NCBI GenBank assembly: GCA_030704615.1
Contig: CM060731.1
Span: 67,394,001 to 67,458,000 of the forward strand
Direction: 5' to 3'
Length of the DNA stretch: 64,000 nt
DNA from: Takakia lepidozioides
Lineage: Eukaryota > Plantae > Bryophyta
Shown here: one piece after another, positions 11,451 to 36,700 of the stretch
Layout: every line of letters starts with the position of its first letter
How positions within the stretch are numbered: the first letter of the stretch is position 1
The notes under the pieces: generated by a model
What the model saw: only the letters and a program-made list of their open reading frames with translations
Told to the model about the DNA's origin: nothing
Databases searched by the model: none
Translations under genes and position numbers: made by a program

Positions 11451-12084
11451 TTCGTCAACCTGGCAGCTGCAGCTTGCCATGGCGCAGCCGTGGCAGTCTT
11501 GACCCTCAAATCCGAGGATCCCTCTGCCACTACACCTTCCAGTAACTCCGCAGAAGATGAAGTGACCTCCCCACTCTCGCAGAGTGTTGCTGCTAGTCTG
11601 AACAGTGCAGCTGGTCTTAACCCGGTGTCGCAATCATGGTTGCCGAGAACAGTGGGGCTTGACACACAGAGGTGGCTGCCCCCAATAACACACCGGCTGC
11701 ACTAGCCTTGGTAGCAGGTGTCAGTGCTGCACGTGTAGCTCTCCCCAATGGCATAGTAACCTCCGCCTCGGTAACAGTCGGGCGAGAACTAGGTGCCATG
11801 GATGGCGTCGACATTGTCTCCGCCAATGTGAATGACTGAGGAAGCCTCGCCTGACAGCTTGCCTCCCCACGCTGTGGATCCAATTCCACCTCTGCACCTC
11901 ATGGCTCATGAACTCGTGCTGCTCCTCGAGTCACGGCTGCAGCAGACCACCTGCACTAGTGGTAGTGCTGCTCCGCACATGAATCCCATGCCTCCCATAT
12001 CTCCTCCCTCAGGAGCAGGAGGTGGACCATCCCGCCTGGGAGCCGGTACCACCTGAGCTGTAGCCATGGCAGCAAGCCTCTACT

Positions 12085-13528
12085 CTAGCTGCTGAAGCCG
12101 GTTGGCCATGTCTTGGTCAACACCCTGACCTCCGCGTCCTTGGCCATGTTGAGGTTGCCCTTGGCCTGCACCTCGTGCCCGACCACCTCGTCCTCTCTGG
12201 GCTGGTCCACCTCGCCCCCGGCCACCATTGTTCCCTTAGAATCGGCCTGGGCGCAACTCAGGGTGCAAGTCATAACACTGGGCATCTCCATGCCCATACT
12301 TGCCACAATGCCCACACTGCAACTGTGCAGGCTGTGCTTGTGCCGGCCTTCTGCCACTCTCTGGGCAATCTCTCTTGACATGGGGTCCTCCACATGTCCA
12401 ACATATCACCCCTGGTTGTTGTTGGCCTACAAAAGATGTCACGGGCCTCTGCACATGAGGTCCCCTGTAAGCTCCATAGAACTTGGGTTGGGCAACCTTG
12501 CCCCCCTGACCACGCTGTTGGGCAGTCCCTTGTACCAGTTGGCTGGCAGCTGCACCTCGTGCAGGCACGTCCTTGCCAAATCTAATGGTAACAACTCGCT
12601 CCTCCACCATGTTGAGCTCAATCCGCTCAGCCAGCAGAAACACATCTGCTAATGTGGGTTGGGCCGCTTGTAACAGGGTTACATCCCGCACCTTTCTCTT
12701 GAGCTCTTTGTCCAAAATTCCATACCAGAACTGGACTGCCTGAGATTCAGTAACCCCTTGGGTCACACTTATCAAGCGCCTCATACGAGTGTAGGCCTCT
12801 CGCAAGCTCTCACTGGATTTGCGCTGGAAGTCTTGCAAACTTCGCAGTTTCTTTGTCCGTACACCTTGGTAGTTCCTCCGCAACTCCTGGAAAAACTCCA
12901 CCACCGGGTTGAATCTAGGCATATATGTTGTAGTCATGGCAGGAGGAGTAGTAGCACATTTTGAACTGGTACCACCTGCAGAAGTGCCGGCACTACTTGT
13001 TCCACTACTAGTGCTTGTAGTTGGAGATGTTTGTGTAGCTGCTGGTGTCACCGCTGCCCTTGTGCCTCTAGTGATTGAGACATAGTTAGGTGACCAATAC
13101 TCTCGTCACTCCTCAATCTCCACCGCATGTCCCCGCCTAAATTCATGGTAATCATCCATGGGCGGCTCCTCAAGGTGCTGGAATAGCCCCTTCCACGCCA
13201 TAAAGGGCGTAAACAGTTGTGGATTGCGCATTTGCTGCAAATCAAACTAACTGTCAAACTCTTGTATAAAATCATCAAGCTCGATGGTGCCCACAGCTCC
13301 AGAGTACCTACGTGGCCCCTTGGTAGCTCCATACATCTCCTCCATCGTGTCCCACAACAATGGCACGGAAATGACTTGCACCCTCGGTGAGAATCCTCCT
13401 GACTCCGAGTCTGAACCTTCCTCAGAAGACACTGAAGGTGAAAGTGGCCTAAACCGCACACCTTGTCTTGTGTACCCACTAGTATCGCTGGTGCTCGTAC
13501 CGGCACTCCCCTCAGCAGCTGGTGGCAC
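12085..13528 (-). pseudogene. Family X copy 1: gag with two zinc knuckles
   Basis: FQRKSSESLREAYTRMRRL (MHR-like), CWTCGGPHVKRDC, CGHCGKYGHGDAQC; internal stops. Confidence 0.85.
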
Positions 13529-14352
13529 CTCCGTGATGAAAACTCACAACCCAACCGGTTGTCAACCTGTCTCTAATCCCCACTTTCTAGAAGGTAACCG
13601 GTTAAAGAACCTGTTGCAGCTACTGGTTCAAGCAAGAATAATAGGTTTCTAACGTAGACCTGTACCTGCACCTGCATCCACCGCAAGCACTCATATGGTC
13701 TGCTGGTCATCAACCCAGCCTCACCATAGAAGAAACACCGGTGGTCTTGCTGGTCATCACTCCAGCCTCACCACCGACAGCATACTCTAGGATTGGCCGG
13801 TGATCAAATCCAGACCAACCTCCTATGAAAACAAGCGCCCACACAAAGCTAACATGGCGCACAGTCAAGCATGCAGGTGTGGAGGGGATCCAAACACAAG
13901 AAAATCAAGACAACAACTCCCCCACACCAAAAACACTCCACAGTGTCGCTCCTGCAAGGACACCCCATCCCAAACCCGGACTGACTCTTGCCTCCATCTA
14001 CGGAAAGGTTTTGGCCTACAGAGAGGGTGAAAGACTAAGGAGAAGAGAAACTAAAGCAATTCCTAAACCCAGAATGCTCTCATCCCACCACTCTCCCTCT
14101 TGTCTCTATCCACTCGCTTGTATGGCCGTGGCAAATATCCTTCAATATCCCTCAATCAATCCTTCAAGAGCTCTTCAACATTGTCCACCAAAGCTCCTCG
14201 AAGGGTCCTCCAAGGACCCCAAAGATCCTCCAAACACTCCTCCAAGGACCCCAAAGATCCTCCAAATACTCCTCCAAGGGCCCTCAAATATCTTCCAAAC
14301 AATCCTCCAAAGGCCCTTAAATTTCACAAAGTCCTTTCACTGTTGATAGCTT

Positions 14353-14742
14353 AACAGAGGTATAGTCTGAGGTTGCTAGGGTCCCTTATGTTGATGATAC
14401 CTTTACAGAGGTATAGTCTGAAAATGAGGGTTCTGTTTGGTATACTAACAGAGGTATAGTTTGAGCTGATTAGGGTCCACATATGGTGATACCTCAACAG
14501 AGGTATAGTAAAAGGGACAAGCTCATGTTTGGTATACTAACAGAGGTATAGTCTGAGCTGATTAAGGTTCACATATGGTGATACCTCAACAGAGGTATAG
14601 TAAAAGGAACAAGCTCATGTTTGGTATACTAACAGAGGTATAGTCTGAGCTGATTAGGGTTCACATATGGTGATACCTCAATAGAGGTATAGTAAAATGG
14701 ACAAGCTCATGTTTGGTATACTAACAGAGGTATAGTCTGAGC
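14353..14742. repeat. Tandem array in the family X leader: nine AACAGAGGTATAGT cores, alternating 43/49-bp spacing (92-bp dimer)
   Basis: Cores start at about 14353, 14404, 14447, 14496, 14539, 14588, 14631, 14680 and 14723. Confidence 0.9.
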
Positions 14743-17661
14743 ATACACTACTAGGGTTTGTAATGAAGAGCTAGAATGCAAGTCCTTGACTTCTATGCTT
14801 CTACTCAAGCAAAAATATGGTCTCTAGGTGGTCATAAGAGGCATCTTCTTGCTCTCTTCCACCCTAATGTGCAGCCAAGAGTGGTCCAACTCAACTTGCA
14901 AGTCATTGTCCACCAAATCAATCCCCCTTCTAGTCCTTGGGATTTGATTGCAAACTACCATATCTCCATTGCTGAGCAATCATGCATTTGTCTCCTCATC
15001 ACTTGACAATTGCTCCAAATCAACACAAATTATCTCAATGTGTAGGAGCAATGCTTGTCACTTACAATAATGCTCCCAAGCAATCCGCCTTGGATCCCAC
15101 TCTCACGCCATATGCCTCATTTGGGGTCTTGCACCAATCCATCATCCATGTGCTCCCCGTGGTCATTTGAATGCATGTTTCATGACCTCTTGGCCTATGT
15201 GTTGCTCTCCTTCATCATAACATGAATCAACACCTCTCCACTTCACACACAAGTGGATCTCAAAGGCCTTCACCTCTTGCTAGTTCACGAGCTCCCCTTC
15301 TCAAACTTGAACTTACAAACTCAAGCGAGCATGCTCCACACATGCACCACTTGCTTGGTCAACTATCCACCACAAAGCTCGCACTACCAAGAGCATGAAT
15401 AGCCAAGTATTGTCTCCCCCTCTTGTAACATTACATAGTTAGGGTGAAGCTATGCATACATTGAATGATGATTTCCCTTCAAGGATTTCCCACCACATGT
15501 TCTCCAAGCCCTTCCAATGGCACCCTAAGCTTGGCTCCACACCACCATGATTGGAAGATTTCTTCACATGCTCCCTTTCAAAACCTCTTGAGCTTCTTAG
15601 TGCTCTCCAAGTGCTTGCCCTTGTTGTCTTCAAGCCCAAGCATATATAGCTCATTGGCTTCTCTTCCACAACATCCACACTTTGAACTTGCTTTTGCTTA
15701 ACCCTAGCTTGATAGTGAAATGAGCACTAACAAGCCTTTAGTCACTCTCCACAAGCCATGGCACACACCATCGACTCCATAATGCATACAAAGGATTCTC
15801 AAACCCTAGAATCCATGCTTCCACACACACAAGACTTCCTCATTACAATCCTTGCAAAATCTTGTGACTCAAGAGCTTTCTTCTCAAGCTCTCCAACTCC
15901 TAGGTGCATGCAATATTCGAGCACATTTCCTTGCAACCCTTTGCAAGCCTTGTGATACAAGAGCTAAATTCTCCTAGCTCTCAACCTCTTTAAAATACAA
16001 GTGCAAAACTAATCCTTACACTCCGCACTCACAAGCATAAGGTGATCTTCTTGTAGTGATAAGAGATGAGAAATGAGAGAAGTAGAAGACAATGAAAGCT
16101 CTTTTTAAGCATGAAGCAATCACATGAAGAACAAGCCCTAGTCCTTCCAAGTGAAATCCACCCTATCACATAAACTAAGTCAAGCCAAGGGCACCTTTGC
16201 TAAAGGAATCCACCCTACAAAGCCCTCAACATACTCCCTCTCAATACCTAGAGCTATGGAGGTGAGAGAAGCTCATGGAGGTTCAACTACAAGAAGATGA
16301 GCCTCCTCAACACTCACAAGGGGAAAACCTATCTCCATGTCTCAAGTGAGGCTCGACACCTCACTTGGCATGTGAGACCAAATGAAGTCCCAACACACAA
16401 AATATACATATAAATATCTAAAATGTCCTAGTTAACTAGAAGTAGGTAATTCTAGATAACCATGACTAAAACCATGACAACCCACTTCTAGTTAACTACG
16501 ATATTTTGGATATTAATATTTGTATTTTGTGTGTTGGGACTTCATTTGGTCTCACATGTCAAGTGAGGTGTCAAACCTCACTTGGGACATGGGGATGGGT
16601 TTTCCCCTTGTGAGCGTTGAGGAGGGCTCATCTTTTTGTAGTTGAGCCTCCATGAGCCTCTCCCACCTCCATAGCTCTAGGTATTGAGTGGGAGTGTGGT
16701 GAGGGCTTTGTAGGGTGGATTCCTTTAGCAAAGGTGCCCTTGGCTTGACTTAGTTTGTGTGCTTAGAATGTATAGTGGACAGCAATGTATGTTGTGGCAC
16801 GATGCTTAGGTGCACGACAAAAGGTATAAGGGTTATCATGAATAAGCGGATAGTCGCATATGACTCCTCTTTGGGAATAGCGAAATCAACTTTCATCCAT
16901 AATAAACTTGAAAATTCATCCATTTATTTTTCATAAATTGTTCAATAAAAGAGATGTTACCTATGAGGGAGGTGTTGTCTTTAGGCACTTCATGAGGTAG
17001 TTTTCAACAAAGGAGAGGAGGTGACACCTAGGGAATGCACAAAAGGGGCTTAGCGATTTGGATGCCTAGTCTCCTCTTTATTCTAAAGGGGAGCCAATAA
17101 ATTGAGAAGAAAATGATGGAAAAATAATCTTTTGTGAAAAGCACAACATGCAATCAGAACCTTCTAAAGCTACAGCAAGATAGAGAGAAGATCGGAGGCC
17201 GCAACTAAGAGTCACTTCATCTTTCTACAATGGAAGCCACATAAATGAACCTCGAGAAGACGGAAAAGAACCATCCCCAGGAAGCTTCCAAATATGTACC
17301 CAATGTCGTTCAAAAACAACAATCAACCGTACATCTAAGAGGGTTGTCGGAGGGTGTTATTGCATGCCTCCTAAAGTGGCAATTGCATGTGGGGCCCATT
17401 TGGCGGCTGCATGTAAAGCCCTAACTTAACAAATCTTCTAGAATGTGCTGACATTGTAGGGTGTTGTAGGGTGTGAGGGTGGGAGTCGGAGGCATTGGCT
17501 GGTGGCAGAAGAGAGAGTTAGTAGGAGAGAGGCATAGCCAAGAGAGAGGGCCTGCCACAGCTATGCAAGGGGAGGGTTCATGGACTACTATCCAACGGTG
17601 CTGCAATGAGGAGGAGGGTGTAAAGGATCTACAACAAATATATATATATATATATATATGT

Positions 17662-19114: not shown

Positions 19115-21639
19115 GTCTGAGGAGGTGGAGGTGAATTGGAGGCACAGAAAGCTCAGGGTTCCAAGGATTAAGGCGCAGCTTGACTTTGCCCCTGAGGCAC
19201 CATAGCTGAAAGTCCAGGCTGGGAGTGTTCTCTTAGGGAGCAGTGTCAGATCAAACTGGTTAGATGGATATTAGTTCTCGGCATGGCCTCTTGGTTCATG
19301 GGTGCAGAGCGAACACTCTACTCCCTTTTCATTTCTGTTCTTCGCTTTGTATGGCAGTGGTTTTTTTTCTGGGATGCAGCTCTGGTTTGTTCCCTTATGC
19401 ATTTAGAGCTCCCGTTTCTGGACGCAGTGTCGCCCGTTACTTCGTACCCCCCATCCCATTCCTCTGTTGTTTGTCTCCGGGTAGTTGTCAGACGTTCTAG
19501 AGATGCAATGATTGGTCTTTAAATACTTATCAGGTGGAGAAACACAACCTCATGCTTTGTCAATGTTGCTGGTGAACTCTAATAGATATTTACCTCTATC
19601 ACTTGAGTTCTATTCAAACCTTCTGGTGGATACGGTGGCTGGCAGTCCATCCTATTTTGTCTGATTTTATTTTTCTTCATATAATAAGACAATACAAAAC
19701 AAACCCTGTTGTAGAAGCCCATATTTTGACATAGAAGAGGCACACAAGGATATCTCCGTGGCCAAGGCAACGGTTACCACCTGCACAAGACTTGCTCTTG
19801 TATGAAACCCAAAAGTGCCATGATCTACTGACCTTGGTCTACTGTTTTAGACCCATCTTTCTTTCTTTTTGTTTGTTTGTTTGTCTTTTTTTTCCCCTTA
19901 ACAGGGGAAGAGCTTTGGAGATATATTAGAAGGACATGGAAAAAATAACCATGTAAGGCCGTGGAGACTTACACTGGAATTCCACCCCGAACCAAAGAAG
20001 AACTACATGAAACTTGTGTCATGGTTTTAGTCATGGTTAACTAGAATTACCTACTTCTAGTAACTAGGACATTTTGGATATTTATATTTGTATTTTGTGT
20101 GTTGGGACTTCATTTAGTCTCATATGCCAAGTGAGGTGTCAAACCTCACTTGGGACATGGGGATGGGTTTTTCCCCTTGTGAGTGCTGAGGAGGGCTCAT
20201 CTTCTTGTAGTTGAGCCTCCATGAGCCTCTCTCACCTACATAGCTCTAGGTATTGAGAGGGAGTGTGTTGAGGGCTTTGTAGGATGGATTCCCTTAGCAA
20301 GGGTGTCATTGGCTTAACTTGGTTTATGTGATTGAGTGGATTCAAGAATGGAGTGTTTCCATTGTGTTCACTTTCATTATCACTACAAGAAGATCACCTT
20401 ATGCTTGTGAGTGCGGAGTGTAAGGATTAGTTTAGCACTTGTGTTGGTGTACACTAAGGAGTGAGAGAGCTAGGAAAAGCTCAAGTATCTCACAAGGCTT
20501 GCAAGGTGTTGCAAGGATAGGTGCTTGGTGAAGTTGATGCACCAAGGAATATGAGAGCTAGGAGAATTTAGCTTTTGTATCACAAGGCTTGCAAGGGTTG
20601 CAAGAAAAGGTACTTGTGGTGTTACACCAAGGTATTGGAGAGCTCAAGAAGGAGCTTGTTTGCCACAAGATTTGCAAGGATTGCAAGAGGGAAGTCTTGT
20701 GTGTGTGGAAGCATGGATTCTAGGGTTTGAGAATCATTTCTATGCATTATGGAGTCAATGGTGTGTGTCATGGCTTGAGGAGAGCAACTAAAAGATTGTT
20801 AGTACTCATTTCACTATCAATCTAGGGTTAAGCAAGCTCAATTGTGGATGTTGTGGAAGAGAAGCCAATAAGCTACATAGGCTTGGGCTTGAAGACAACA
20901 AGGGCAAGCACTTGGAGAGCATTAGGAAGCTCAAGAGGTTTGAAGGGGAGCATGTGAAGAAGTCTTCCAATCATGATGATGTGAAACCAAGCCTAGAGCA
21001 TTGAAGAGCCTGGAGCACATGTGGGAGATCATTGGAGGTGGTCTTCATGAAGAAAAAAGATTGTGGCTCAAGGCATGCATAGCAACTTCAACCATATATT
21101 AGCATGTGACAAGACAAAGAAGGGGAAGGTGAAGCTCACGTATTCATTCCCTTTTGGCTTAAGTTTTGTGGTGGATGGTTGATCAAGCAAGTGATGCTTA
21201 CGTGGAGCATGCTTTCCAAGTGTGGCTTCCAATTTCAAACTTGAGGAGAGCTAGAAAGTGAAGGGAGTAAGTTGATTCCCTTGTGTACGAGGTGATGCAT
21301 GTGTAAAACATGTTTTTGGCTTGAGCTTTGCAATTTCAAGCTTGAAAGGAGTGGCTCTTGAGCTAGCACGTGAAGGGAGCTTGAATGACCAAGGCTTGAG
21401 AGGAGACAAGGCTTGGTGGCTTGCCAAAAGAGGTACAAGCTTGATTTTGAGTTCCAATGAGAAATCGAGCTTGTTGTGTGGCCAATGCATTGCTAGTTGA
21501 GTTGGAGACAAACTTGAGTAGCTTAAGGTGAAGAAGATCAAGGGAATTTGCCTTGGTACCCCATAGAATTCATGGATGTTTGAGGGGATTAAGCATAGAG
21601 CCCCAAGGAGCACAAATCCTAGCTTGGTAAGGCTAAACC

Positions 21640-22100
21640 TCAAGGAAATAGAGGGGGAAGTGGCTAAAGCTTAGGGGGAAATGGCTAAACCCTAGGGGGA
21701 AATGAACTACTCCATGAGGGGGAAATGGCTATTGCCAGGGGGAAATGGCTATTCCTAAGGAGAATACAAGGGGAATACAAAGGGAATACATATAGGCCCA
21801 GGGGAATACTGGGGGAATACTATGGCATATTCTTAGGAATGTTCTTAGGGAACTTATTGGTAACCCATTGGGAACTTGGAAATGCATTGGGAACGCATTG
21901 GGAACATGGTAACATAGGAAGAGTCCTTGGAGGACTGTTTGGAGGACCATTGGGAGTCTTTGGAGGACTGTTTAGGGTCCTTGGAGGACCAGTTGGAGTC
22001 CTTGGAAGACTATTTGGGGTCCTTGGAGGCCAATATTTGGCGAGCTTGAGGAGTCTTGGCGACTTGTGTAAGGGACTATTTGGGGTCCTCGAGGGCTAAG
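21640..22100. repeat. Degenerate G-rich short tandem repeats in the copy 2 leader
   Basis: Reiterated GGGGGAAATGGCTA, GGGAATAC and GTCCTTGGAGGAC units. Confidence 0.7.
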
Positions 22101-22826
22101 TTTTGGCAGGCTCTTGGGGCCTTGGTGTACTGTTTTGGAGTCCCATTGTGCAAGGATTGGGAGCCTTAGTGAGATTGTTTGAGAGACATATTCTTGAGGG
22201 CTCCTGGAGAGTTATTTGAGAGACCCTTGAAAGGTAGTCTTGTCTATTGTTCAAGCAAGAGAGTGTGGAGATAGGGTAGTGGGATGAGAGCATGTTGGGA
22301 TTAGGAATTGCTTTAGTCTCTCTTCCTTGTAGTCTTTCACCCTCTCTGTAGGCCCAAACCTTTCCGTAAGTGGAAGCAAGAGTCAGTTCGGGTTTGGGCT
22401 GGGGTGTCATTGCAGGAGCGACACTGTGGAGTGTTTTTGGTGTGGGGGAGTTGTTGTCTTGATTTCCTTGTATTTGGATCCCCCCCACACCTGCATGCTT
22501 GACTGTGCGCCATGTTAGCTTTGTGTGGGCGCTTGTTTTCATAGGAGGTTGGTCCGGATTTGATCACCGGTCAATCCTAGAGCGTGCTATCGGTGGTGAA
22601 GCTGGGGTGATGACCAGTCAGACCATCATTGTTTCTCTTATGGTGAGGCTGGGTTGATGACCAGTAGACCATATGAGTGCTTGCGGTGGATGCAGGTGCA
22701 GGTTTATGTTACGAACCTAGTAGTCTAAGCCATAAACCGCAATATATTCTCTACCTAGTTACCTTGTGGAAAGGGGGATTAGAGACAGGTTTACAACAGG
22801 TGTGGTTGTGAGTTTTCATCACGAAG

Positions 22827-25800
22827 GTGCCACTAGTTGCTGAGGAGAGTGCCGGTACGAGCACTAGCGATACTAGTGGGTATACAAGACGAGGTGTGCG
22901 GTTTAGGCTACCTTCACCTTCAGTGTCTTCTGAGGAAGGTTCAGACTCAGAGTTAGGAGGATTCTCGCCAAAGGTGCAAGCCATTTCCGTGCCATTGTTG
23001 TGGGATACGATGGAGGAAATGTATGGAGCTACCAAGGGGCCACGTCAGTACTCTGGAGCTGTGGGCACCATCGAGCTTGATGATTTCATATAGGACTTTG
23101 ATAGTTGGTGTGATTTGCAGCAACTGCATAATCCACAACTGTTTACGCCTTTTATGGCATGGAAGGGGCTGTTTCAGCACCTTGAGGGGCCGCCCATGGA
23201 TGACTATCATGAGTTTAGGCGGGGACATGAGGTGGAGATTGAGGAATGGTGGGTGTATTGGTCACCTTACTATGTTTCCATCATTAGAGGCACAAGGGCA
23301 GTGGTGACACCGGCAGCTACACTGACAGCTTCTGCAAGCAGCAGTGGGATGTCAAGTGGAACAGGAGCTGGGAAGTCCACCCGAGCTCCTGCTGCAGCAC
23401 CAACATCCGTGCCTGCCTTTAACCCAGTTGTGGAGTTCTTCGAGGAGTTAAGGAGAAACTACCAGGGGATAAGGACGGAGAAATTGCGGAGCTTACAAGA
23501 GTTCCAACAAAAGCCTACTTAGAGTTTGAGAGGAGCTTACACGCACATGAGGCGATTGATAAATGTAACCAAAGGGGTTACGGAAGCTCAAGCAGTCCAA
23601 TTCTGGTATGGGATATTGGACAAGGAGCTGAGGAGAAGGGTGCGGGATGCAACTCTCCTATAAGTGGCCCAACCCACCTTAGCAAACGTGTTTTTGCTGG
23701 CAGAGCGGATAGAGCTCAATATGGTGGAGGAGCGAGTAGTCATGGTAGGGTTTGATAAGGAAACACAACAAAGTGGGGCTCCTAGCCAACAACAACCACT
23801 ACCCCAACCTGCTCAAGGCAACGGCATGAAGAGACCCTTTGTTATGACTTGCATCCTGAGCTACAGCCAGGCCAGTTCCAAGGGAACAATGGTGGCCGAG
23901 GACAAGGCAATGTATTCCAGAGAGGTAGAGGAGGCAGAGGTCGTGGTGGAGGTCGTAACCAAAACCAAGGAGCACAGGATCAGGGTCAAGGTCAAGGTCA
24001 AGACCAAGACCAAGGCATGGTGGATAGGCTTGTTACTAACACCTTGGGTTCATCACTTCAATCAGGAACATATTTGATAACCTTTTGTCATGCTCAGACC
24101 AAGGTGTTAGTATATAACAACGTCTTGCTACCATGGCCACTACTCATGTTGCGCCAGTTCCAAGACCTGAGGTTCAAGCCCCACCTGCACAACCTCATAT
24201 GCCTAGAGAAGACCAGATTGGTATGGGCTTCATGTGTGGAGCCGCACTTGCAGGACCATTGCATGTGGACTCTGTAGCTACTGTCACTTGAGCAGCAACG
24301 CGTGCTCCTGAGCCAAGAGGAGCGGATGTGGATTTTGATCCACAAATAGGGGAAGCAAGTTGGCAGACAAGGCTTCCACAGTCTTTCACATTGGCTGAGA
24401 CAGTGCCAACTATGCCATCGATGACACTCGCTCGCCCAAGTGTGTCAGAGGTAGAGCCACGAGTGCCATTGGGGAGAGTTGATATGGCTCGGGAAATGCC
24501 AGTGGGTGGTACTGCAAAGCAAGTTGCAGCCAGTACATTGTTGGGGGCGGCTATGGCAATTTGCCAAGCTCCATTGTTTTCTGTCACGACAATTGCAATG
24601 TCGGGGATGTGGCCAGCTGCAGTGTTTAGATTGGCAGCTGCACTCTGTGAAAGTGGTGATGCATCGGCACTATCTGCGGGGATAGCGGATCAGGTGCAGT
24701 GCATGGATGCCCTGGATTCAAAGGTGAAGATAGCCACAGCTGCGCCATGGCAAGCGGCAGCTGCAAGGTTGCAGGAGTTGTCAGCTAGACCAGCCATTGA
24801 GCGTAGTATGGTGACTCCTGGGGTAGTCCTGGTGGACAATCAGGATGGTGTGTTTCAGTTGGGTGGCCCAGCCGGGAGGAGGTATAGGCCACTGCGGGTC
24901 TTGTTGGACTCGGGAGCACAGCCATTGATGTTGGGGATAGCAACAATTGCAGGCTTGGGCCTTACAGCGGCGGATTTGGAGCCTTGCCCTTTCCAAATTC
25001 AAACATCTTTGGGCGGTTCAGAGAAGGCACTAGGGATTACACGCCATGAGCTCTTCATTCGATTGCAGCCAGATCATCCTACATATGGCTCTGTCATGAG
25101 AGCTAAAGCCATTGATACGGATGCGATGTCTTACGATGTGCTTGTTGGTGGGGCTGTGTTATACCCGATGGGCTTTACTTTGGACTTTTGGGAGGAAACA
25201 ACATCCTACAGGCCGGAATGGCAGTCAAGGGATGGTCGACGTGCACCGCTCCCAGTGCGGTTTATTGGGAATGTAGCGGTGGATCATAGGAACATGATGC
25301 CCACATTGGCTGCATTATCAGGGGTGGTGGCTTGGGGTGGTGAACTCTTGGAGGGCAATAGCCATGCAGATGATAGGCCACCACCTGATGAAGACAAACA
25401 ATTGGCATACAAGGCTGATTTGCTTCCTCATGTGCCTATTCATACTCCCCTGTGGAGTACAGTTGGGAATTCGCATCGAATAGCAGGCGAGTGTGTGCAC
25501 CAAGCATGGCAGGAGGCATATCCATTGGTGAGTGAGGGGAGTTCAGTGACATCACCTAGACCTCCTCAATTAGCTCCTTTGGACACAGTGCCCATTACCT
25601 GGCAACCACTTGACTCGGGGATTTGTTTGCTAGACCTGTTTGGAGGCATGAGCACTGGGCTTGCGGGAATGTTGCAAGTAGGGATTAAAGTACGTAAGTA
25701 CTTGTATGTGGAGAAGGATGAGATAACTCGGCGTATTTCTATGTGCCACATCGCCTTGATCACACACCAGTATCCTGAGTTGTTGCCTCTCTCAGCAATT

Positions 25801-27177
25801 CAAGGGTATCAAAAGGCCTTGCCAGCAGACATTACCTTGCTGGGGGCGGATGATATGGACCGGCATGGTACCATTGACTTGGTGATAGCTGGATGGCCTT
25901 GCCAAGGACACTCTCCCGCAGATCATGGGAATGGCTTGCATGATGCACGATCGCATTTGTTTTGGGAGATGTTGAGAGTGTTGCGTGACTTGCAGACGAG
26001 ACAAATGCAACCTCTAGCCTATATCTTTGGAGAATGTTCCTCTTATGGGGGATTCTCGGGCACGGATGATGGCCAGTGTGCGTCAGGTGCGGTCTTGGAT
26101 TGGATCGGCGGTGCTATTGGATGCAGCAGCGGTGGGATTACGGGCACATAGGCCTAGGTTGTGGTGGACCAATCTTGCACCGCCGGAGTTGCTCAAGAGA
26201 GCATAAAATTCCATTCAGCGACCACCCAATCTCACGGTTGAGGGCATTTTGGACCAAGGGAGGCAACCACAAAGGGTGCGACATGATGACCATCCACCTT
26301 TGGCGATGGTCAATTAAGTGGGGCAGCCACGTACGGCCTTGCCTAAGCTTTCCCTCGTCTCATGCTTTTCGAGACAATGGTCCTGGGTTGATTTGGGACA
26401 GTGTGCTACAGCAATTGGTGGAGCCTAATGCGGATGAGTGCGAGCGGGCAATGGGGTTTGCCACGGGCACTACAGCTGTGCCAGCTCTGTCAGAGGCATC
26501 ACGACGCCAGGTGTTGGGTCAGGCAATGGATCTCAATTGCTTGACATGGGTCATTGGCTTGTGCATGGCTGAGCAATGGAGATTGCAAGCATTGGTGGCT
26601 ATTTCTGCACTTCCATTGGATATTGCACCATCTCTGCCAACCGGGACGGTGGAGGTAGTGAGTGGGGGCGAGCACAGGATCATGGGGTGCAAACACCCAT
26701 GACAGATGTGGGATGAGATGCGCAAAGAGAGAGTCATTGGATCTCTCAAGCAGTAGTATGAGGAGTGGGGAGAGCCATACACTGAGGATCAGTTGGAGGC
26801 CAAGGTAGCTAAGGTTTTTGAAGAGGTTGAGAATGTTTCTTACTTAGAGGATGTTCCCAAGGTGGCTATGGCGGAGCAAGTAGAGGCTACGCAACAGTCA
26901 GGGTGGGTGGATAAGGCCCAAGAGGTTGTTATCTAGCAACCAAAGGATGCATCTCCTACCTCCAAGCCTGGTGCACCCAAGGTTGCAGTCACTGAGGACA
27001 ACTGGGAACCAGATGTTAGACCTACAGTCACCGGAGGAGAGAGACGGAGGATCCAGCGATTTCTAAAGGCTTATAGAAATTGCTTTGCCTTCGGTTTGAA
27101 GGATTTGGGGAGTTTGAAGGGCCAGGAGATTCGTATTGATTTGGCAAGTGACACGCCAATTTTTTTAAGGCCCTACC
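22827..27177 (+). pseudogene. Family X copy 2: gag, protease, DNMT3-like methyltransferase (about 25618-26545) and the very start of RT
   Basis: ORF 24328-26151 carries RVLLDSGA, LLDLFGGMSTG and IDLVIAGWPCQG in a single frame. A +1 frameshift sits at the YILENVP motif; then AHRPRLWWTNL, ECERAMGF, RRQVLGQAMD. Confidence 0.9.
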
Positions 27178-30100
27178 TGTCATGGACATAGCCCAGAGGA
27201 ATTTATCAGGAGTAAATACCAGAAGTTATCAAGTTACCATGTTACCAAAAATTACCATGATTTATCTTGATTTACCATGATCTATCATGATTTACCATTA
27301 CAGACCAAGTTACCGGGAGTTTACCAAATTACCAAAAGTAACTTGGGAAACTACTCAGGAAGCTTCATTTGAAGGAAACTTCTCCATCAAGATACCTCAT
27401 TTGCTTAAGGAAGCTTCTCCATCAAGAAACCTTTGTTTAATCTTGGAAACTTCTCCAGCAAGCAATCTCCATAGGGGAAGCTTCTTAGGGAAGCTTCTTA
27501 GTAGCCAGTATATATAGGAGGCGAGATTGGACACTCTTCAGTCTCGCCAACACCAGTTCAAGCTATTTTTGTTTCCAGATCCCAGTACTCCAGTCCAATT
27601 CCCAGTACCCTAGCCCAGTTTCCAGTATCTGGTACTTCAGTCCAGTTTCCAGCATTCCAGTATTCAAGTCGTGTTCCAATATCTTGTACTCTTGTTCATT
27701 GTTATAAAGATCGTCTTGATTTCTATTTACTCATCGTGCATTCGGCCACGTCGACCTTGACTTCTTGTCTAGCCTTGTACCTCTAGTCTTATTTCTTGTT
27801 TGTGTTCAGTCATGTTCTCGTCCTTGACAGTTTGACGATACTGCAGTTTGTTCCTTAGTTAGTTAAGATGGAAGACACATTTGCAGAAGTGGTCGCCACA
27901 TTACAGAGTCTTCAGCTCCAGATGCAAGAACTTCGTGCCTCTACTGCCCAACTACAAGCTGATCAGTCTCAAGACCTTGGCAATGCTCTCAACAATTTGC
28001 AACAACAAATTTCAGAGTTAAAGGAGTCGAACAATGGATCTTCAACCTTACGAGTCCCTACTACAACAAATCGTACTGCAATGGTTTCTCTAAATCTTCA
28101 ACAGATTACAAGGGAACCAAAGGTCAGCATGCCTGATAAATTTGATGGGACGAGATCAAGATTTCGCGGTTTTGTTCAACAAGTATGATTGTTCCTACGA
28201 CTACATCCACAACGTTACTCTGATGAAGGTATTCAAGTGGGATTCGTAGGCACCCTTCTATTACGCACTGCCCTATCTTGGTTTGCACCGCTATTAGAGA
28301 AAAATTCACATTTACTATACAATTTTGAAGCGTTCATGTCCGAGTTCACTGCAACGTTTGGAGAGAATAATAGAGAGAGAGTTGCAGAGACAAAATGCGA
28401 AATCTTCGACAAGGAGCACGTCCAGCTTCCGTTTATGCTACCGAATTTCGACAATTTGCGTGCGACCTTGACTGGAATGAGAAGAGCCTCATTAGTCAGT
28501 TTCGATGTGGCCTAAAAGATAATGTTAAAGATTTGTTGCTGACAATGCCAAACGTGAGTACACTGAGCGAATTCATCACCCAAGTCAGAAAGACGTCAAG
28601 AGAAGCGATCTGGATGGTCGACGACGCACCATGCTGCTGCTACTACTACGGCACCAAATACAACGATCCATCAGACATCCGGTAATGATCCTATGCAGAT
28701 TGATGTTGTCCGATTCAAGCCATTGACACCACATGAAAAACAAAGACGGCGCTCGAATGGATTATGCCTTTATTGCGGAGAAAAGGATCACATGGCATTA
28801 AACTGCCCCAACAAGAGAAGATTCAAAGCTCGGGGCACCACTCAAGTGTTCGATACGAGGAGGTCGGAAAACGAAGATGTCCAGTCACAGTAGGGACCAT
28901 GCGGCTGGACACCCCAAATTCCTCACCAAAAAAAGGTCTATTTCTTCCTCCAGACCCTGTATCTTGTTTCACAGTTCCAGTAAAGATCAGGATGCAAAAT
29001 CGAGATATCTCCGTAGAAGCACTTTTGGACTCGGGCGCTTTAGCGTGTTTTATTGACAAACACTTTGCGAAGCAACACAATTTAACGCTCGTAAGAAAGA
29101 AATTCTCGGCCCCTGTTGAAGTTATCGATGGACGACAGTTAGCATCAGGAAATGTTGACCATGAAACTCGACCCCTTGAAGTGAAGCTTAAAAACCAAGC
29201 ATCACAGATTGTTTTCAATGTCATCCAGTCTCCAACGAATCCTGTGATCCTTGGACTTCCCTGGTTTGTACTTCATAATCCTGACATCGACTGGCAATCA
29301 CGAAAATTTTTGGCAAGACAAAAATGCAAAAGTACCAAAGGTATTCAATCCCTGTTTCTTGGAGCTAGAGCCTTCATGAGAGCTACCAAAAAGGAGACGA
29401 CATTTGCACTTTATGCGACTCCGATCAAGACCACAACAAACAAAGGTACTTCAACATTACCCGTTCAATATCAAGATTTCAAAGATGTCTTCGAGAAGAA
29501 AAATGCAAACATATTGCTAGAACATCGACCTTATGACTGTGCAATTGAGTTACAAGAAGGAGTCCAACCACCATTCGGCCCAATATAACTTATCCCAGAC
29601 GGAGTTGGTTGCATTACACGAATACATTGATGAAAATTTGTCAAAGCACTTCATCCGACATTCCAAATCACCCGCGGGGGCGCCTATCTTGTTTGTGAAA
29701 AAGAAGGACAGATCATTACGCATGTGTGTCAACTATCATGGTCTCAACAAAGTCACAATCAAGAATCGTTATCCATTGCCGCTGATTTCTGGGCTTCTCG
29801 ACCAGCTGGGACGAGCGAAGATTTTCACCAAAATCGACTTGAGAGGAGCTTATAACCTTGTACGGATAAAAGAAGGAGACGAATGAAAAACAACTTTTCG
29901 AACAAGGTATGGACATTTTGAATACAGTGTTATGTCTTTCGGTCTTACAAATGCTCCAGCAATTTTCCAACATATGATGAATGACATATTTCGAGAATTT
30001 TTAGATGACTTTGTAGTCATCTATTTGGACGACATTTTGATATTTTCACAGAACGAAGAAGAACATGGCCGCCATGTATATCTTGTCGTTGATAAATTAA

Positions 30101-30656
30101 GAGAAAGAGGACTATATGCCAAGTTGGAGAAATGTCTTTTCCATCAATTTGAGGTCAAATTTCTGGGCTACAATATTTCCGACAAAGGCGTCTTTATGGA
30201 TCAGAAGAAAATACAAACCATCATCGAGTGGATTAAACCAACTTCGGTCCGAGAATGTTTTCTGGGTTTTGCAAATTTCTATAGAATCTTCATCAATGAC
30301 TACTCCAAAATTGCTGCACCATTGACACGACTCACATAGAAGGACAAATTTGTATGGGACGAGAAGGCTGACCAAGCATTTGAAAGGCTGAAGCAGGCAT
30401 TTACAACGGCTCCAATACTGGTACATGCAGACCCATCTAAACCATTCTTCTTAGAAGCAGATGCATCGGACTTTGCACTTGACGCGGTACTCTCACAATA
30501 CGGTACAGATGGCCGACTTCACCCTGTTGGTTTTCGTTCTCGCAAATTTTCCGCTACGGAGATCAATTATGAAATCCATGACAAAGAACTTCTAGCGATT
30601 ATTGATGTTTTTGAGGAGTGGCGTCATCTATTGGAGGGAGCTAAACATCAGGTCAC
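27178..30656 (+). mobile_element. 3'-truncated Tcn1/Tf1-like Ty3/gypsy element: 5' LTR 27178-27829, gag, PR, RT, RNase H (disrupted)
   Basis: LTR TGTCATGG...CTTGACA with TATATA at about 27509. Motifs PDKFDGTRSRFRGF, PMQID, CLYCGEKDHMALNC, ALLDSGA, YLDDILIFS, EADASD. Clade assignment is by motif resemblance only. Confidence 0.8.
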
Positions 30657-30795
30657 TGCGCCATGCCCATGAGGAGTTGGGACATTTTGGGGTGCGGCGC
30701 ACTCATAGTTTGCTGCAAGGACAATACTGGTGGCGGGGCATGCACACGGATGTACAACAATTAGTGGGAAGGTGCATGGTGTGTGATAGAGTGCG

Positions 30796-33700
30796 TGTCG
30801 CGGCCCTTTGCCTTGAGGGCAGAGGGTTGGGACACATGAGGGGCTGCCCTTGTGGTGGGGGCAGCGGCAGCGATAGGTATGGGGGGGCTGAAGCACCCTT
30901 GAGTGCCCAAGGCACTCAAGGAGGCGGAGGCGCTCACTAGGTGGAGCCTCGCACACCGGGTTGCGGGTGGGGGTCCACAAGGGGTGGTGGTAGCTTAGCG
31001 GGACTTAGTGGGCGTGGCATAGGACTCACCATGGGGGCGGAGACCTCATGGTGGGAATCGTGGGGAGTCTTGGGACTCATCACGGTCCATAGGGGCCGTG
31101 GTGAGTGGGCCAAGACTCACCGCGACTCATCACCGGGAGTCGAGGGTTTTCGTGGTGGTTCGCCATAAAATGGCATGGCTGGTTGTGAAACCCCCGCGGA
31201 CAGCTACAGAAGTATATATAAGGGGAGTAGTGACCCCAAGAACGGTGCAAGCCCGTTGGTGACCAAAAACTAGTGAGCAAGCGAGCGAGCCGGAAAGCGA
31301 CCAAAGAGTGGGGAGCTGTTCCGGACTGCCATCTACCAAAGGGAATTCCACTAGGCCCAAATAGGTGGAGGGTTTAGTGGGAGAGCGAAGGGGGACCGTT
31401 ATGTCCCGGTGAGTAGCCGAAGCTCCAAGTTGGCCCGGCGGCCAGGTTGGGAGTCAGGCGCGCGCATCAAAGCGAGTAATTATGACTTGAAGGGGAGCTT
31501 ACCAAAGTGAGGTGCGCGACACCTGGTATCAGAGCTTAGAGTTCAGTACGTGATTGTCCTTGGGATTGGCCTCATCATGGGGTCGGGCAAGCCAAAGCGA
31601 ATGCGGAACAGCCCAAAAGAAGATGATCCTGGTGAGCCCGACGTGTCACCGAGGCGGCCGTTTGAGGGAGCGATGCACGTTTCCGAAAACGAGGCCGCTC
31701 AAGAGCGGGAGGAATCCGTGAGAGCTCCGACCGACCAACAGATGTCTCCCATGCCAGCAGCCTTTTGGGAAGGGTTGTTGGCGCAGTTTGGCGGGACGCT
31801 GAAAGACGTGTTGAGGGCGGCTAATGCCACTTCCACTAAGGCAAAGTTTAAGGTGAAGCCTAAGGAACCCGGCACCTTCGAGGGCGTCCAAAATCGGAAG
31901 GCGCTCAACACCTGGCTCTTGGAGCTAGAGCAGTACTTCCGGGCGGCCAAGTTGAGTGACGAGGATCGGGTGGAAGTGGCTCCCACCTATTTGAGGGGCT
32001 ATGCTCAACAATGGTGGCAGAAACGCCTTCACGACCGAGGTCCAAGCTTGGAAACCTTGAACTGGAGTGGGTTCAAGGAATTGATGAAGAGACAATTTGT
32101 GCCCCTCAACGCATCCTGGCTTGCCCGGGACAAGATAAGGAATTTGAAGCAAATAGACGACATTCGGGGATATGTCCAGGCTTTCAATGTGCTTTTGCTC
32201 GAAGTCGCGAACATGGCAGAACCGGAAATGGTCTTCAACTTTGTGGCGGGACTGGCCCCATGGGCCAGGCGGAAGTTGGAGGAGAAGCCACCTAAGACTT
32301 TGAACGAGGCAATTGAGAGGGCTGAATGTTTCTCAGATGTCCCTAGGGGTGAAAGACAAGGCCGTACGGAGCTGAACCACAAGAAGACCCGGCGGGAAGG
32401 TGACTCCTTCCGACCGGAAAAGAAGTGGGATAGGCCACGCGGCGACAATGGCACGTGGAAATCGAAGGGAGGGCCATCACAAGTCAAGGCGGCACCCGGT
32501 GCTTCGAAAGGAAAAGCGGGTGGAGCGGCCTATGGCGGACAAAAGGCAACCTTTGATGGAGTGTATTTCAATTGTGGGGAGCCCGGGCACATGGCCAAGA
32601 AGTGCACGAAGCCCCGACAATTGAACATGACTCGGGCGACCACAGAGCTGTCGGAAGATACCATCAGTCGCTTGGTGGAAGCAGTGGTCGCCAGGACTTG
32701 CAAGGTAGGCAAATATTCTTGTGAGTTGTATCAGGAAACTGGCGCATTGCGTAGAGGGAGTCACTTATTGTTCGTGGATGGGATAATATCCGGAACTAAC
32801 GTGTCATTGTTGGTGGACACAGGAGCGTCGCACTCCTTCATGACACCGGCAACGGCACAAAAGTTGGGATTCCCGACAACTGACGTAGGGGCCTCTATTG
32901 AGGTGCGTTCTGCCAAAGGAGAACCGCAATTAGCGACGAGGTTGGCGTTCGATGTTCCTCTTCAACTGGGGAGTTGGGAGGGACGTGAGGACTTCACCGC
33001 CTGCGAGATCGATGGAGTGGATCTCATTTTGGGGATGACCTTTTTGAGCAAATCCGGAGCGGTCATAGATGGCCGCAAAAGAGTAGTCACGCTGCCATGT
33101 GGGAGTGGTGGCGAGGTCTTACGAGTGTCGGAAATGCCCAAACTCGTGGGAGGGCGAATAAACCTTATATCAGCAAGGGAGTGGGCCGTGGAGGAGGCAC
33201 ACGAGCCCCAGTTTTTGCTCTACATTAGAGAAGTGAAGGGAGAAGGCGATGGAGAGCCGAGCCCAGATTGGATCAAGGGGATTTTGGAGAAATACCATGA
33301 TGTGATGCCGGTGGATTTGCCAAGCGGCTTGCCACCGCGAAGAGGAGTTGACCACAAGATTGAGGTGATACCGGGATCGGAACCGCCTGCCAAGGCGCCC
33401 TACCGGTTGAGCCACAGAGAGTTGGTCGAGCTGAAGACTCAGCTCAAAGATCTAATGTCAAAGGGGTACATCCGGCCGAGTAAGTCACCTTACGGAGCCC
33501 CGGTGCTATTCGCAGACAAGAAGGATGGGACGCTGCGGATGTGTGTCGATTACAGGGCTTTGAATAAGGTGACTATCAAAAACCGGTATCCTTCGCCAAG
33601 GATTGACGACCTTTTCGATCGGTTGGCAGGAGCGAAGTATTTCAGCCGGATCGATCTGCGCTCCGGCTATCATCAAATTCGAGTGGCGGAAGGAGATGAG

Positions 33701-36700
33701 GAGAAGACCGCGTGCAGAACAAGGTATGGTTCATATGAGTTCTTGGTGGTGCCTTTTGGGCTCACCAATGCACCCGCGACCTTTAGCACGCTGATGAACA
33801 GCCTTTTCCAGGAATGGTTGGATGACTTTGTGATCGTGTACATCGACGACATCTTGGTGTATTCGAAAACAAAAGAGGAGCACCTGGAGCACCTCAAAAG
33901 GGTGTTCCAGAAATTGCGGGAAGGGAAGCTGTATGCCAAAGTTTCAAAGTGCGAATTCGGGGTCACAAAAGTGGAGTTCCTGGGGCATGTGATTACACAG
34001 GATGGGATCAAAATGGATGACAGAAAGGTGAGGGCGATCTTGGACTGGGAGCCTCCGACTTCGGTCCCGGGAGTGCGATCCTTCCTAGGACTCGCCTCCT
34101 ATTACCGGATGTGAGAAATTTCGCCAAGATCGCGGGGCCGTTGTCAGACCTTCTGTGTATATCCAAAGTCTGGGTATAGAACACCTTGTGTGGCCAAGCT
34201 TTTGCTGAATTGAAGCAGCGGATGGCGGAAGCTCCAGTCTTGAAAATCCCGGAGTTCGATCGTCCGTTCGAGATACATACAGATGCGTCGGACTTCGCGA
34301 TTGGGGGTGTTCTGATGCAAGATGGACGTCCAGTGGCTTACGAAAGTAAGAAACTGAATGAAGTGGAGCGACGGTGGCCGACGCACAAAAAAGAGATGAA
34401 GGCGGTGGTGCACTGTCTTGAGCTTTGGCGCCACTATGTTGGTTCCAACCCAGTGAAGGTGTTCACGGACAATGTCACGGTGAAGTATTTTGCCACGCAG
34501 CCCAAGTTGTCCCCAAAACAACTTAGGTGACAAGATACTTTGTTGGTGTTCGACGTGGATATCCAGTACAAACCGGGACGAGACAACGTGGTGGCCGATG
34601 CTTTAAGTAGGAAGCAGCAGCTCTTGTTGGTGTACAAGGGCGAGACGGATGGGGGTTAAATTGCAGTTCCACTTGCAAAATGGAGTGCTCTGGTATAAGC
34701 AAAAGCGTCTCTATGTGCCGAAGGGAGGGATCAGAGATAGCCTCTTGAGAGAATGCCATGATAGCCCACTTGCGGGCCACGGCGGAGCCAAGCGCACTGC
34801 GGCACTCTTGAAGAAAGAGTATTTCTGGCCCAAACTGAGGGAGGAGGCAGAGGAGTATGTCAAGACATGCACCACATGCCAACAAAACCGGAGCGAGTAC
34901 AAAAAGCAAGCGGGGCTGCTACAACCCTTGCCGATTCCAGAGGGGACTTGGGAAAGCGTCTCGATGGATTTCATGACTGCTATGCCGCTGTCAAAAGGAT
35001 TCGATGCAATCATGGTGGTGGTGGATAGGTTCAGTAAAATGGGCCATTTCATCCCCACCAAGGAGACGGCAACGGCGCAGGAGACATGGCGACTTTACTT
35101 CGCCCACGTCTTAAAGCATCATGGAGTCCCGAAGGATATTGTCTCGGACCGCGATCCAAAGTTTACGAGTAAATTTTGGAGGGCACTTTGGAAGAAGATG
35201 GGGACGAGGCTGAAGATGAGCACCGCCTTCCGACCTACGACCGACGGCCAAACAGAAAGAGTGAATTCCGTAGTGAAGCAGATCTTGCGGAATTACGTGT
35301 CGGCAGACCAAACAGACTGGGTGGAACACTTAGACGCGGCAGAGTTCTGTTATAATAACACAGAATACTCCGCAACAGGAGTTTCCCCTTTCGTATTGGT
35401 CTATGGAAAAGCACCTCTGGTGCCGACAAGTTGGGCCGCCCAGGACGTTGAGGAACCGGCAGTAGCGGCGGTACTGGAAGAACGCGAGCGTTTGTTGAAG
35501 CTCGCAAAGTACAACATTGCCAAAGCTAGGAAACGGTATGAAAGGCAGGCGAATTGAAAGCGGAGGGAAGTGAAGTTTGAGGCAGGCACAGAGGTCTGGT
35601 TGAACATCAAGAATTTCCGACTACCTCCGGAAGTGAGTCTGAAGTTCGTACCTCCGTATGCGGGACCCTTTCGCATTCGGAAGGTTATGAATGAGGATGT
35701 GTATGAATTGGAGCTGCTGGCAAACAGCAAGGTGCACCCAGTATTCCATGTCTCCCTTTTGAAGCCTTACTTCAAAGATGAAGCGTATCCAAATCGGCAT
35801 CAAGTGTTGCGTCCGCCACCTATGCTGTTGGATCATCAAAATGAACCTGAGTACGAGGTGGAGGCAATACTTAAGTCGAGGAGGTTCAGGAACCGAGAAA
35901 CGGAGTATCTCGTCAAATGGAAGGGCTATCATCATGTGGAGGCATCTTGGGTGCGTGCCTCAGAAATGGGAAACGCATCCGAGGCGGTTGCAGCTTTCGA
36001 AGGGCGACCTCAAAAGCGGAAGAAGCGTTGATGGGGACATCAACCTTGGAGCGTGGGAGAGGAAATGCATGCTTAGCCCGGCTTAGCTAGCTTAGGAATC
36101 CGATTGCGAAAACTTGTATTGTACAAAACGTGCTATAAATGAAATGGATTCCAAATGTTGTGCGTCCTATTTTGTTTGGAATGGTGATGCATGGTATGGT
36201 TGGCTAGTGTGTAGAATGCATGCTAGCTTATAAAAGTGGGAGAGGTAAATTGGGTTAATCGTGTGTTTGCGTAGTGCCGAAATCAGGTGACCCCCATCAA
36301 AGGGGCAAGGAAACTTGCGCCTTCTTTGGGAGTTCACGTGCTAGTGCGCATCTGGCGCGTGCGCGTTCTATAACTCCGCTACCGAGGGGGTTGCCTTGTA
36401 GTGCGGGCTAACGCGGAAGCTACGTGCTTCCGTTCACGTACTATAATCGTGTAGCCTCGGGATGAAGTCGTAGTGCGGCTTCGGCGTGTTCCCATACCTC
36501 AGGCGAGCATTCCAAGGCGGACCCAATTGTAGTGATTGGGGCGCACGGTTGGTTCAAGGTTATCTTCCTAGTCAAAGAGGGTTCCAGGGAACCCTTGCTC
36601 AAGGTGATGCCAAAAGCGGCATCATGAGCGGTCGCAAGCAATGTTGTTGTAGTAAGGCGATTCGATCCTCGGGGAGGATCGTTCCTTGGCCTTGAAGTAG

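Follow-up and report, generated by a model that had tools for sequence, protein, structure and literature searches.

The closest described systems are retrotransposons that carry a DNMT3-type DNA methyltransferase within Pol. The text of de Mendoza et al. (2018, PMC5890265) describes KnitGypsy-Dnmt3 of Klebsormidium nitens, which has Gypsy domains, a DNMT3 in Pol, DIRS-like repeats, and a Ka/Ks under 0.2. In that paper, the function of retrotransposon DNMTs was left open, the algal Gypsy case was read as an independent, local capture "in the K. nitens lineage," and the main text does not mention Marchantia. Later papers, as far as their accessible text goes, cite Gypsy-DNMT3 elements as "streptophytes" and add no new hosts (PMC12344493; bioRxiv 10.64898/2026.05.21.726589). 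Here, we analyzed a window of 64,000 nucleotides (the whole stretch under study: Takakia lepidozioides contig CM060731.1, positions 67,394,001 to 67,458,000, forward strand), in which a preliminary description, made from the sequence alone, had reported three copies of a Gypsy family with its own DNMT3-like methyltransferase. We propose that this family, which has split repeats, starts reverse transcription by self-priming, inserts from a circle of joined cDNA ends, and packages a methyltransferase that marks the CG sites of its new cDNA. We give this whole scheme a probability of roughly two in three. All positions are those of the window.

As far as the published text allows comparison, the window family shares with KnitGypsy-Dnmt3 the Gypsy domains, an intronless and unpermuted DNMT3-like domain in Pol, purifying selection, and two repeats, A and B, in the layout A-coding-B-A-B. 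With the K. nitens protein GAQ93235.1, it shares the order of protease followed by methyltransferase, and the two fall in the same clade. Compared to the Ka/Ks of under 0.2 for the algal element, our values were 0.12 and 0.09 between subfamilies and 0.25 for a close pair. Since all the testable defining features were found, the window family belongs to the KnitGypsy-Dnmt3 kind. The preliminary description had treated it as a separate land-plant novelty, a view that does not hold given the shared repeat layout, domain position, and tree clade. The window family differs in residing in a land-plant-type genome and in its far higher copy load, as judged from depth, which is not a copy number. Self-priming, an internal integrase site, 4-bp duplications, and a PHD finger are not described in the 2018 text, although its Fig. 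4c may show domains. We found no paper on a land-plant Gypsy-DNMT3 family or on its replication model, in a literature search whose coverage left out subscription journals, Repbase, Fig. 4c and the supplementary figures of PMC5890265, and preprint supplements.

Other systems were more distant. SymbioDIRS-Dnmt3 also has a DNMT3 in Pol and A-coding-B-A-B repeats, and it methylates CG de novo in yeast, but it is described with a tyrosine recombinase, in contrast to the DDE integrase (PF00665) and 4-bp duplications of the window family (PMC5890265). The DIRS/PAT tyrosine-recombinase class was thus rejected, given the rve core and the 4-bp duplications. Troyka, a Gypsy-like element with unusual ends, was also rejected, since its description gives CG...CG ends, 3-bp duplications, ordinary long terminal repeats (LTRs), and animal hosts only, whereas the window family has TG...CA ends and 4-bp duplications (Kojima 2025, PMC12440569).

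All three copies belong to a Ty3/Gypsy family whose polyprotein comprises gag, protease, the DNMT3-like methyltransferase, reverse transcriptase (RT), RNase H, and a DDE integrase (PF00665) that ends in a PHD finger (PF00628; E values of 3e-10 and 3e-8). The preliminary description was right about a Gypsy element with the methyltransferase between protease and RT, but it did not mention the split layout of the repeats, the site for self-priming, the predicted integrase site inside the element, or the PHD finger. Self-comparison revealed repeat A (366-423 bp) and repeat B (86 bp), arranged A-coding-B-A-B in copies 1 and 2. The whole elements and the parts of copy 2, together with the integrase of copy 1, are as follows.

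20017..56802, forward strand: copy 2, whole element, interrupted by nested insertions; CTTG duplication at 20013-20016 and 56803-56806
20017..20382, forward strand: copy 2 repeat A1, 366 bp, zero CpG
20199..20210, forward strand: copy 2 predicted self-primer, likely RNA 5' end; exact complement of the 12 bases after A1
20383..20394, forward strand: copy 2 primer-binding site directly after A1, not of the tRNA 3'-end type
23010..24277, forward strand: gag of copy 2; zinc knuckles present, frame interrupted by stops
24292..26151, forward strand: copy 2 open frame, aspartic protease (LLDSG) joined to methyltransferase motifs I-V
26574..27176, forward strand: copy 2 linker and start of RT; remaining RT and RNase H lost
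54980..55975, forward strand: copy 2 integrase core and C-terminal PHD finger (PHD 55841-55975)
56235..56247, forward strand: copy 2 polypurine tract, directly 5' of B1
56248..56333, forward strand: copy 2 repeat B1, 86 bp, GACA end
56330..56339, forward strand: copy 2 palindromic B/A junction GACA-GC-TGTC, predicted integrase site
56336..56701, forward strand: copy 2 repeat A2, 348/366 identical to A1
56702..56802, forward strand: copy 2 repeat B2 with a 15-bp terminal duplication
5038..16479, reverse strand: copy 1, whole element, internally rearranged; GGGT duplication
7047..8210, forward strand: integrase core of copy 1, followed by the PHD finger (8076-8210); the segment is inverted
37703..54979, reverse strand: copy 3, nested in the copy 2 integrase, rearranged, 3' end cut inside A2
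5002..16819, forward strand: solo A-B repeat (5002-5037 and 16480-16819), split by copy 1; AAAG duplication

The element termini are TGTC...GACA, and the internal B/A junction, GACA-GC-TGTC in all three copies, is a palindrome of both element ends joined. Exact 4-bp target duplications flank each of the three window elements that have both ends: CTTG for copy 2, GGGT for copy 1, and AAAG for the solo A-B repeat, into which copy 1 inserted. The 3' end was confirmed with public contigs from three runs of one sample, because 43, 26, and 27 contigs, respectively, depart right behind 56333 into unrelated flanks. Depth summed over the repeats was about 1000 times the flank depth, which is not a copy number, and the family is high-copy. 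A1 and A2 are identical at 413/420 positions in copy 1 and at 348/366 in copy 2, so the family has been active fairly recently and at more than one time.

Copies 1 and 3 show the same type of apparent rearrangement (5793-8678 and 47963-52311), in which two adjacent segments are swapped and one is inverted. The breaks have short shared bases or filler and may be biological or made by the assembly. The leader between A1 and gag is long, with tandem repeats of about 32 and 92 bp at 14188-14834 and 52702-53347.

The 12 bases after A1 have no tRNA 3'-end character and are, in copy 2, the exact complement of bases 183-194 of A. This 12-base exact complement between A and the primer site is found in all three copies, and the probability of such a match by chance is about 2e-5 for one repeat. 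An RNA starting at the primer complement is predicted to fold with this pairing. In Tf1, self-priming works by pairing of the RNA 5' end with the primer site. We consider it highly probable that transcription of the window family likewise starts near base 183 of A and that the first 12 RNA bases pair with the primer site. Tf1/Sushi elements and the plant Tcn1 and TAR elements, as described by Neumann et al. (2019, PMC6317226), share a primer site right after the LTR that is complementary to the LTR interior, with no tRNA involved. Self-priming as such is therefore already known in other plant lineages, but those elements have ordinary paired LTRs, and Tcn1 has a chromodomain in contrast to the PHD finger and methyltransferase found here.

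The polypurine tract immediately precedes B1, and at the A/B junction, in the window as well as in a second host, the base just upstream of the primer site adjoins the base that directly follows the polypurine tract. The unit bounded by the polypurine tract and the primer site is B+A, so the true LTR, in the sense of reverse transcription, is likely B+A. The target duplications flank the B/A junction, which lies in the middle of this unit. In our model, reverse transcription would yield a linear [B-A]-coding-[B-A] cDNA with B+A as the real LTR. Joining of the cDNA ends would then create the A/B junction, and integrase would cut the palindrome GACA-GC-TGTC of the upstream LTR, moving B to the 3' end; we regard this route as probable. 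Its outcome would be A-coding-B-A-B with a 4-bp duplication. As the integrated copy retains a start site in A1 and a second A for strand transfer, the cycle would close. Cleavage of palindromic end-to-end junctions by integrase, and integration from such circles, have been reported for foamy virus and HIV-1 2-LTR circles (PMC1180852; PMC4372172, both as far as their accessible text goes). There, the junction that is cut is formed by the joined cDNA ends, whereas the site in the window family would be inherited within the LTR and the end-join left behind as the A/B scar.

Relatives in a second host were collected from metagenome contigs (234 pattern matches, 99 confirmed relatives, 80 loci kept), and A or B was present in 40 of the 80 loci. 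Eleven loci have both ends, with 4-bp duplications that are exact in nine and have one mismatch in two. Four of them are A-coding-B-A-B (L005, L062, L064, and L072, two of which are probably one insertion). The primer site has a different sequence in this host, yet it pairs with the matching place in A over up to 17 bases. Pairing of 14/14 bases was seen in 6 of 27 5' repeats, compared to 0 of 540 shuffles, and the best match fell at A positions 155-185 in 16 of the 27.

Several observations weigh against the model. Seven of the 11 two-ended loci in the second host are plain A-coding-B, 21 of the 27 primer sites (those of more decayed copies) pair no better than shuffles, and several loci in this set are the same insertion seen twice. 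In addition, the circle model has two equal junctions, but none of the 27 5' ends in the second host and none of the 3 in the window showed the reciprocal A-B-A-coding-B form. Methylation of one junction as the cause of this asymmetry is speculation; methylation could perhaps also shield the second, spare integrase site from cutting. The A-coding-B loci (L012, L016, L020, L044, L053, L070, and L074) have target duplications and no second A-B, and by our model such insertions would be incapable of further transposition.

Another possible explanation for the split repeats is that no closed circle is involved. Template switching, or the head-to-tail joining of two linear cDNAs, could place internal sites in linear DNA for integrase to cut. 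The existence of A-coding-B and solo A-B insertions with target duplications, as well as the missing reciprocal form, would fit this route. However, both kinds of insertion are also expected from ordinary recombination between repeats or from assembly collapse, and the A/B join is precise, is the same in two hosts, and excludes both the primer site and the polypurine tract. We put the chance of a route without a circle well below even. The idea that the A/B junction differs in every copy was rejected, since the join is precise in most copies. As a hint only, among the contigs listed for one run (X1), at least seven of low depth join A to B with deletions, compared to one across B to A.

Integration from an end-joined circle would be accompanied, in our scheme, by a methyltransferase that is made as part of the polyprotein. 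C5-methyltransferase motifs lie in unpermuted order in all three copies, as the preliminary description had stated. The wordings it quoted turned out to be a composite: the motifs are present, but motif I reads LDLFGEISTG in copy 1, LDLFGGMSTG in copy 2, and LDLFGGISTG in copy 3, and motif VIII is interrupted by a stop in copy 1. The domains are located as follows.

25618..26573, forward strand: copy 2 DNMT3-like methyltransferase domain, disrupted twice by frameshifts and twice by stops
9655..10623, reverse strand: copy 1 methyltransferase domain, complete in length and with a single stop, in motif VIII; shares its frame with the C-terminal half of the protease and RT
51068..51785, forward strand: copy 3 methyltransferase domain on the inverted segment, two deletions and one stop

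The Pfam DNA_methylase check that had been suggested was positive, with PF00145 scores that exceed the curated cut-off: E is 6.7e-13 for copy 1 and 1e-7 for copy 2. The Pfam scan covered these two copies, and copy 3 was judged by alignment (86% identity to copy 1 and 78% to copy 2). In copy 2, a single open frame of 619 codons (24292-26151) spans the protease (LLDSG) and motifs I-V, which bears out the claim that the methyltransferase is part of the polyprotein. Copy 1 adds to this with one minus-strand frame, from 11241 to 8677, that contains the C-terminal half of the protease, the whole methyltransferase, and the start of RT and is interrupted by three stops only. None of the three copies is intact. 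Copy 2 has frameshifts just before ENV (~26026) and near 26345 as well as two stops, and most of its RT and RNase H is lost; copy 3 has lost two internal stretches and carries a stop just past the catalytic motif. In the second host, the domain runs in one frame over 300 residues in 35 loci, 26 of which keep PCQ and ENV and 3 of which are stop-free.

The domain is DNMT3-like, with DNMT3A and DNMT3B as its closest solved relatives by profile and by fold. Against solved structures, a Marchantia relative had DNMT3A as its best match, and a profile of 66 relatives searched against the PDB matched DNMT3A (E 2e-25), DNMT3B (2e-22), DRM (3e-14), and M.HhaI (1e-8). The AlphaFold model of the domain of relative P0002, which is 74% identical to copy 1, had a predicted local distance difference test score of 97. 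Foldseek returned DNMT3A/B as its top matches, and VIA-align gave DNMT3B (Z 29.4, root-mean-square deviation 2.5, 270 aligned), DNMT3A (Z 28.0), and M.MpeI (Z 26.0). At least 90% of the 66 aligned relatives retain the catalytic Cys, the Glu of motif VI, and two Arg of motif VIII. Host DNMT3 of non-flowering plants, as described in the text of Yaari et al. (2019, PMC6453930), and animal DNMT3A/B share the unpermuted motif order and the fold (Z 28-29). The window family differs in being 22-27% identical to DNMT3A/B, in lacking PWWP, ADD, or the plant N-terminal domain, and in being embedded in a polyprotein.

Purifying selection keeps this domain. The ratio of nonsynonymous to synonymous substitution (dN/dS), calculated pairwise after codons with stops or gaps were removed, was 0.12 (95% bootstrap 0.08-0.18) for copies 1 and 2, 0.09 for copies 2 and 3, and 0.25 for the close pair of copies 1 and 3. 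For comparison, gag and the protease core gave 0.16 and 0.18 between subfamilies. The preliminary description had proposed a DNMT3-like domain retained by selection and had named the lack of a profile match, a dN/dS near 1, and a one-off capture as results that would speak against it; none of the three was found. The middle of the domain (10007-10401 compared to 51179-51573) is only 85% identical between copies 1 and 3, and dS for the domain is 0.29, compared to 0.06-0.07 for gag or RT. This divergent middle is likely a patch swapped between subfamilies.

The CpG content of the family fits what would be expected of a lineage that methylates its own CG sites each cycle while its promoter is kept free of targets. 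The observed/expected CpG ratio of the coding part was 0.42-0.49, compared to 0.87-0.89 for the neighboring Gypsy elements. C before G at the synonymous third position was found at 38/267 sites in copy 1 and 95/198 in a neighboring chromovirus (P 2e-15), and NCG codons numbered 54/211 and 104/192, respectively. CHG sites (H is A, C, or T) show no depletion in the coding DNA. In repeat A, 0-1 CpG stand against 15-18 expected and 0-1 CHG against 11-13 expected, and repeat B retains its 3 CpG. We give slightly better than even odds to a mechanism in which the methyltransferase, released by the protease, would mark the CG sites of the cDNA inside the particle, so that the copy arrives methylated and the CpG-free repeat A keeps the promoter usable. 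In yeast, the DNMT3 domains of dinoflagellate DIRS elements methylated CG (PMC5890265, from its text).

There are also points against self-methylation. The host B3 genes of the window are as CpG-poor as the element (odds ratio 0.19 compared to 0.14), and the flanks are poorer in CpG than the element itself at four loci of the second host. The same pattern could thus result from a long stay in a methylated genome. Repeat A of the second host is less depleted, with 4-7 CpG where 13-15 are expected. We looked for a family-specific excess of CG mutations since insertion and found none, as CG and CHG transitions were alike in the family and the chromovirus. Lastly, the text of the 2018 study reports that the Klebsormidium domain gave no methylation in yeast, a result its authors call inconclusive (PMC5890265).

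This negative yeast result could instead mean that the domain is kept for binding, in that it retains or protects the cDNA or circle, or serves as a scaffold for the integration complex, without transferring methyl groups. Motif IV also reads EC rather than PC in 19 of 42 relatives with the protease-methyltransferase-RT order and in many others. Yet the catalytic residues are conserved as described above, the related dinoflagellate domains do methylate CG, and the CpG loss is specific to the family when compared to the chromovirus; a role in binding alone is improbable. We hold it just as improbable that the enzyme acts mainly in trans or after insertion, on the target flank, sibling copies, or the host genome rather than on the cDNA. 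The PHD finger of the integrase could bring the complex to chromatin, and the host genes of the window are CpG-poor too. However, the domain sits in a polyprotein that is packaged with its own RNA, and repeat A has been nearly emptied of CpG and CHG sites, as expected of a self-target. PHD fingers on retrotransposons are already known (PMC6673714, from its accessible text). Judging from what is known of this domain family, the chances are about even that the finger would read histone tails at the target.

The same fusion is widespread. The copy 1 domain matched 17 proteins, 14 of which are gene models of Marchantia polymorpha (51-72% identical), and Calypogeia fissa has one relative. A profile search of 1.84 billion representatives returned 344 clusters (50% identity) at E < 1e-30. 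Two layouts were seen. The first, protease-methyltransferase-RT, is that of the window, Marchantia, Closterium, and Klebsormidium GAQ93235.1. The second, RT-RNase H-methyltransferase-integrase-PHD, was found in 30 of the best 150 representatives, and its named members are from chlorophytes (Scenedesmus, Haematococcus, Cymbomonas, and Hariotina). Most distant relatives (P0029, P0039, P0061, P0209, P0218-P0220, and others) have the methyltransferase between RNase H and integrase. Some distant relatives add G-patch, Tudor, or NUDIX domains, and many have EC at the catalytic motif.

Trees with midpoint roots were built from 215 domains of 250-420 residues (FastTree) and then from 43 hand-picked rows (quick maximum likelihood). 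In the larger tree, 41 of 42 rows with the first layout lie on one side of a branch with support 0.986, and the exception is a protease-methyltransferase-integrase protein. In the smaller tree, the Shimodaira-Hasegawa-like approximate likelihood ratio test gave 98 for the same split and 100 for the group of window, Marchantia, and second host, outside which Closterium and, beyond it, Klebsormidium branch with weaker support. Judged by these neighbors, the host of the window is most likely a bryophyte. The window methyltransferase falls in one clade with GAQ93235.1, the one named K. nitens protein, which we took as the published element from its domain order. An RT tree, built without the K. 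nitens RT, grouped 10 of 11 RTs of the same architecture at 0.85, in weak agreement with the methyltransferase tree.

The methyltransferase tree tracks host lineages, a pattern in keeping with vertical inheritance throughout the green plants and a single relocation of the domain within Pol. This suggests an ancient green-plant element rather than a new capture, with a domain kept since before the chlorophyte/streptophyte split in two Pol positions. A stronger version would have the integrase site in the middle of the LTR, obligate integration from an end-joined circle, an active self-marking CG methyltransferase, a PHD reader, and a CpG-free promoter all belong to this ancient green-plant-wide lineage; we put this forward tentatively, at odds short of even. 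The RT tree has a support of 0.71 and three outgroup rows, and the methyltransferase trees were built without host DNMT3 sequences. A viral origin of the close relatives was rejected, as none of 50 pattern matches in viral contigs was confirmed; a distant viral source is still compatible with the data. That a piece of a host gene was captured recently and neutrally, or that the assembly made a chimera, has next to no probability. The three copies of the window are indeed all broken, two of them also rearranged, but dN/dS is 0.09-0.25 and the same fusion recurs in 14 Marchantia proteins, 80 second-host loci, and the 344 clusters, which also excludes the one-off capture raised in the preliminary description.

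These data place the element kind of the 2018 paper in land plants, including Marchantia polymorpha. Since this species has genetics, methylation mutants, and intact-looking domains, self-methylation is directly testable there. If the stronger version above is true, a model liverwort harbors a transposon that is both writer and reader. The primer site, polypurine tract, and target duplications lead to a concrete model of how an element with both an integrase and split repeats could replicate, and LTR finders that expect paired TG...CA repeats would miss such elements. The value of the findings lies in the land-plant range, the model host, and the specific replication model and not in three dead copies.

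The remaining features of the window are as follows.

59303-60157 and 60634-62079, reverse strand: two open frames that encode B3 DNA-binding domains (PF02362) and are the sole clear host genes of the window; they indicate a streptophyte plant (atlas scores under 0.9)
30795-37663 (forward strand) and 38653-45577 (reverse strand): two young Gypsy copies that have a chromodomain and paired LTRs and are inserted within copies 2 and 3

The chromodomain Gypsy at 30795-37663 has a 5-bp duplication and a tRNA-Met-type primer site, and its CpG is little depleted (0.87). A self-priming Tcn1 was rejected as its identity on account of this primer site. A small non-coding LTR element at 5127-5415 (reverse strand) also has a tRNA-Met-type primer site and carries a tRNA-like sequence in its repeats (ARAGORN, 5147-5219). 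It is placed exactly at the A/B junction of copy 1, and its first repeat is cut short. A second Gypsy-like element, at 27177-30650, whose start is also TGTCATGG, occupies the place of the lost RT and RNase H of copy 2.

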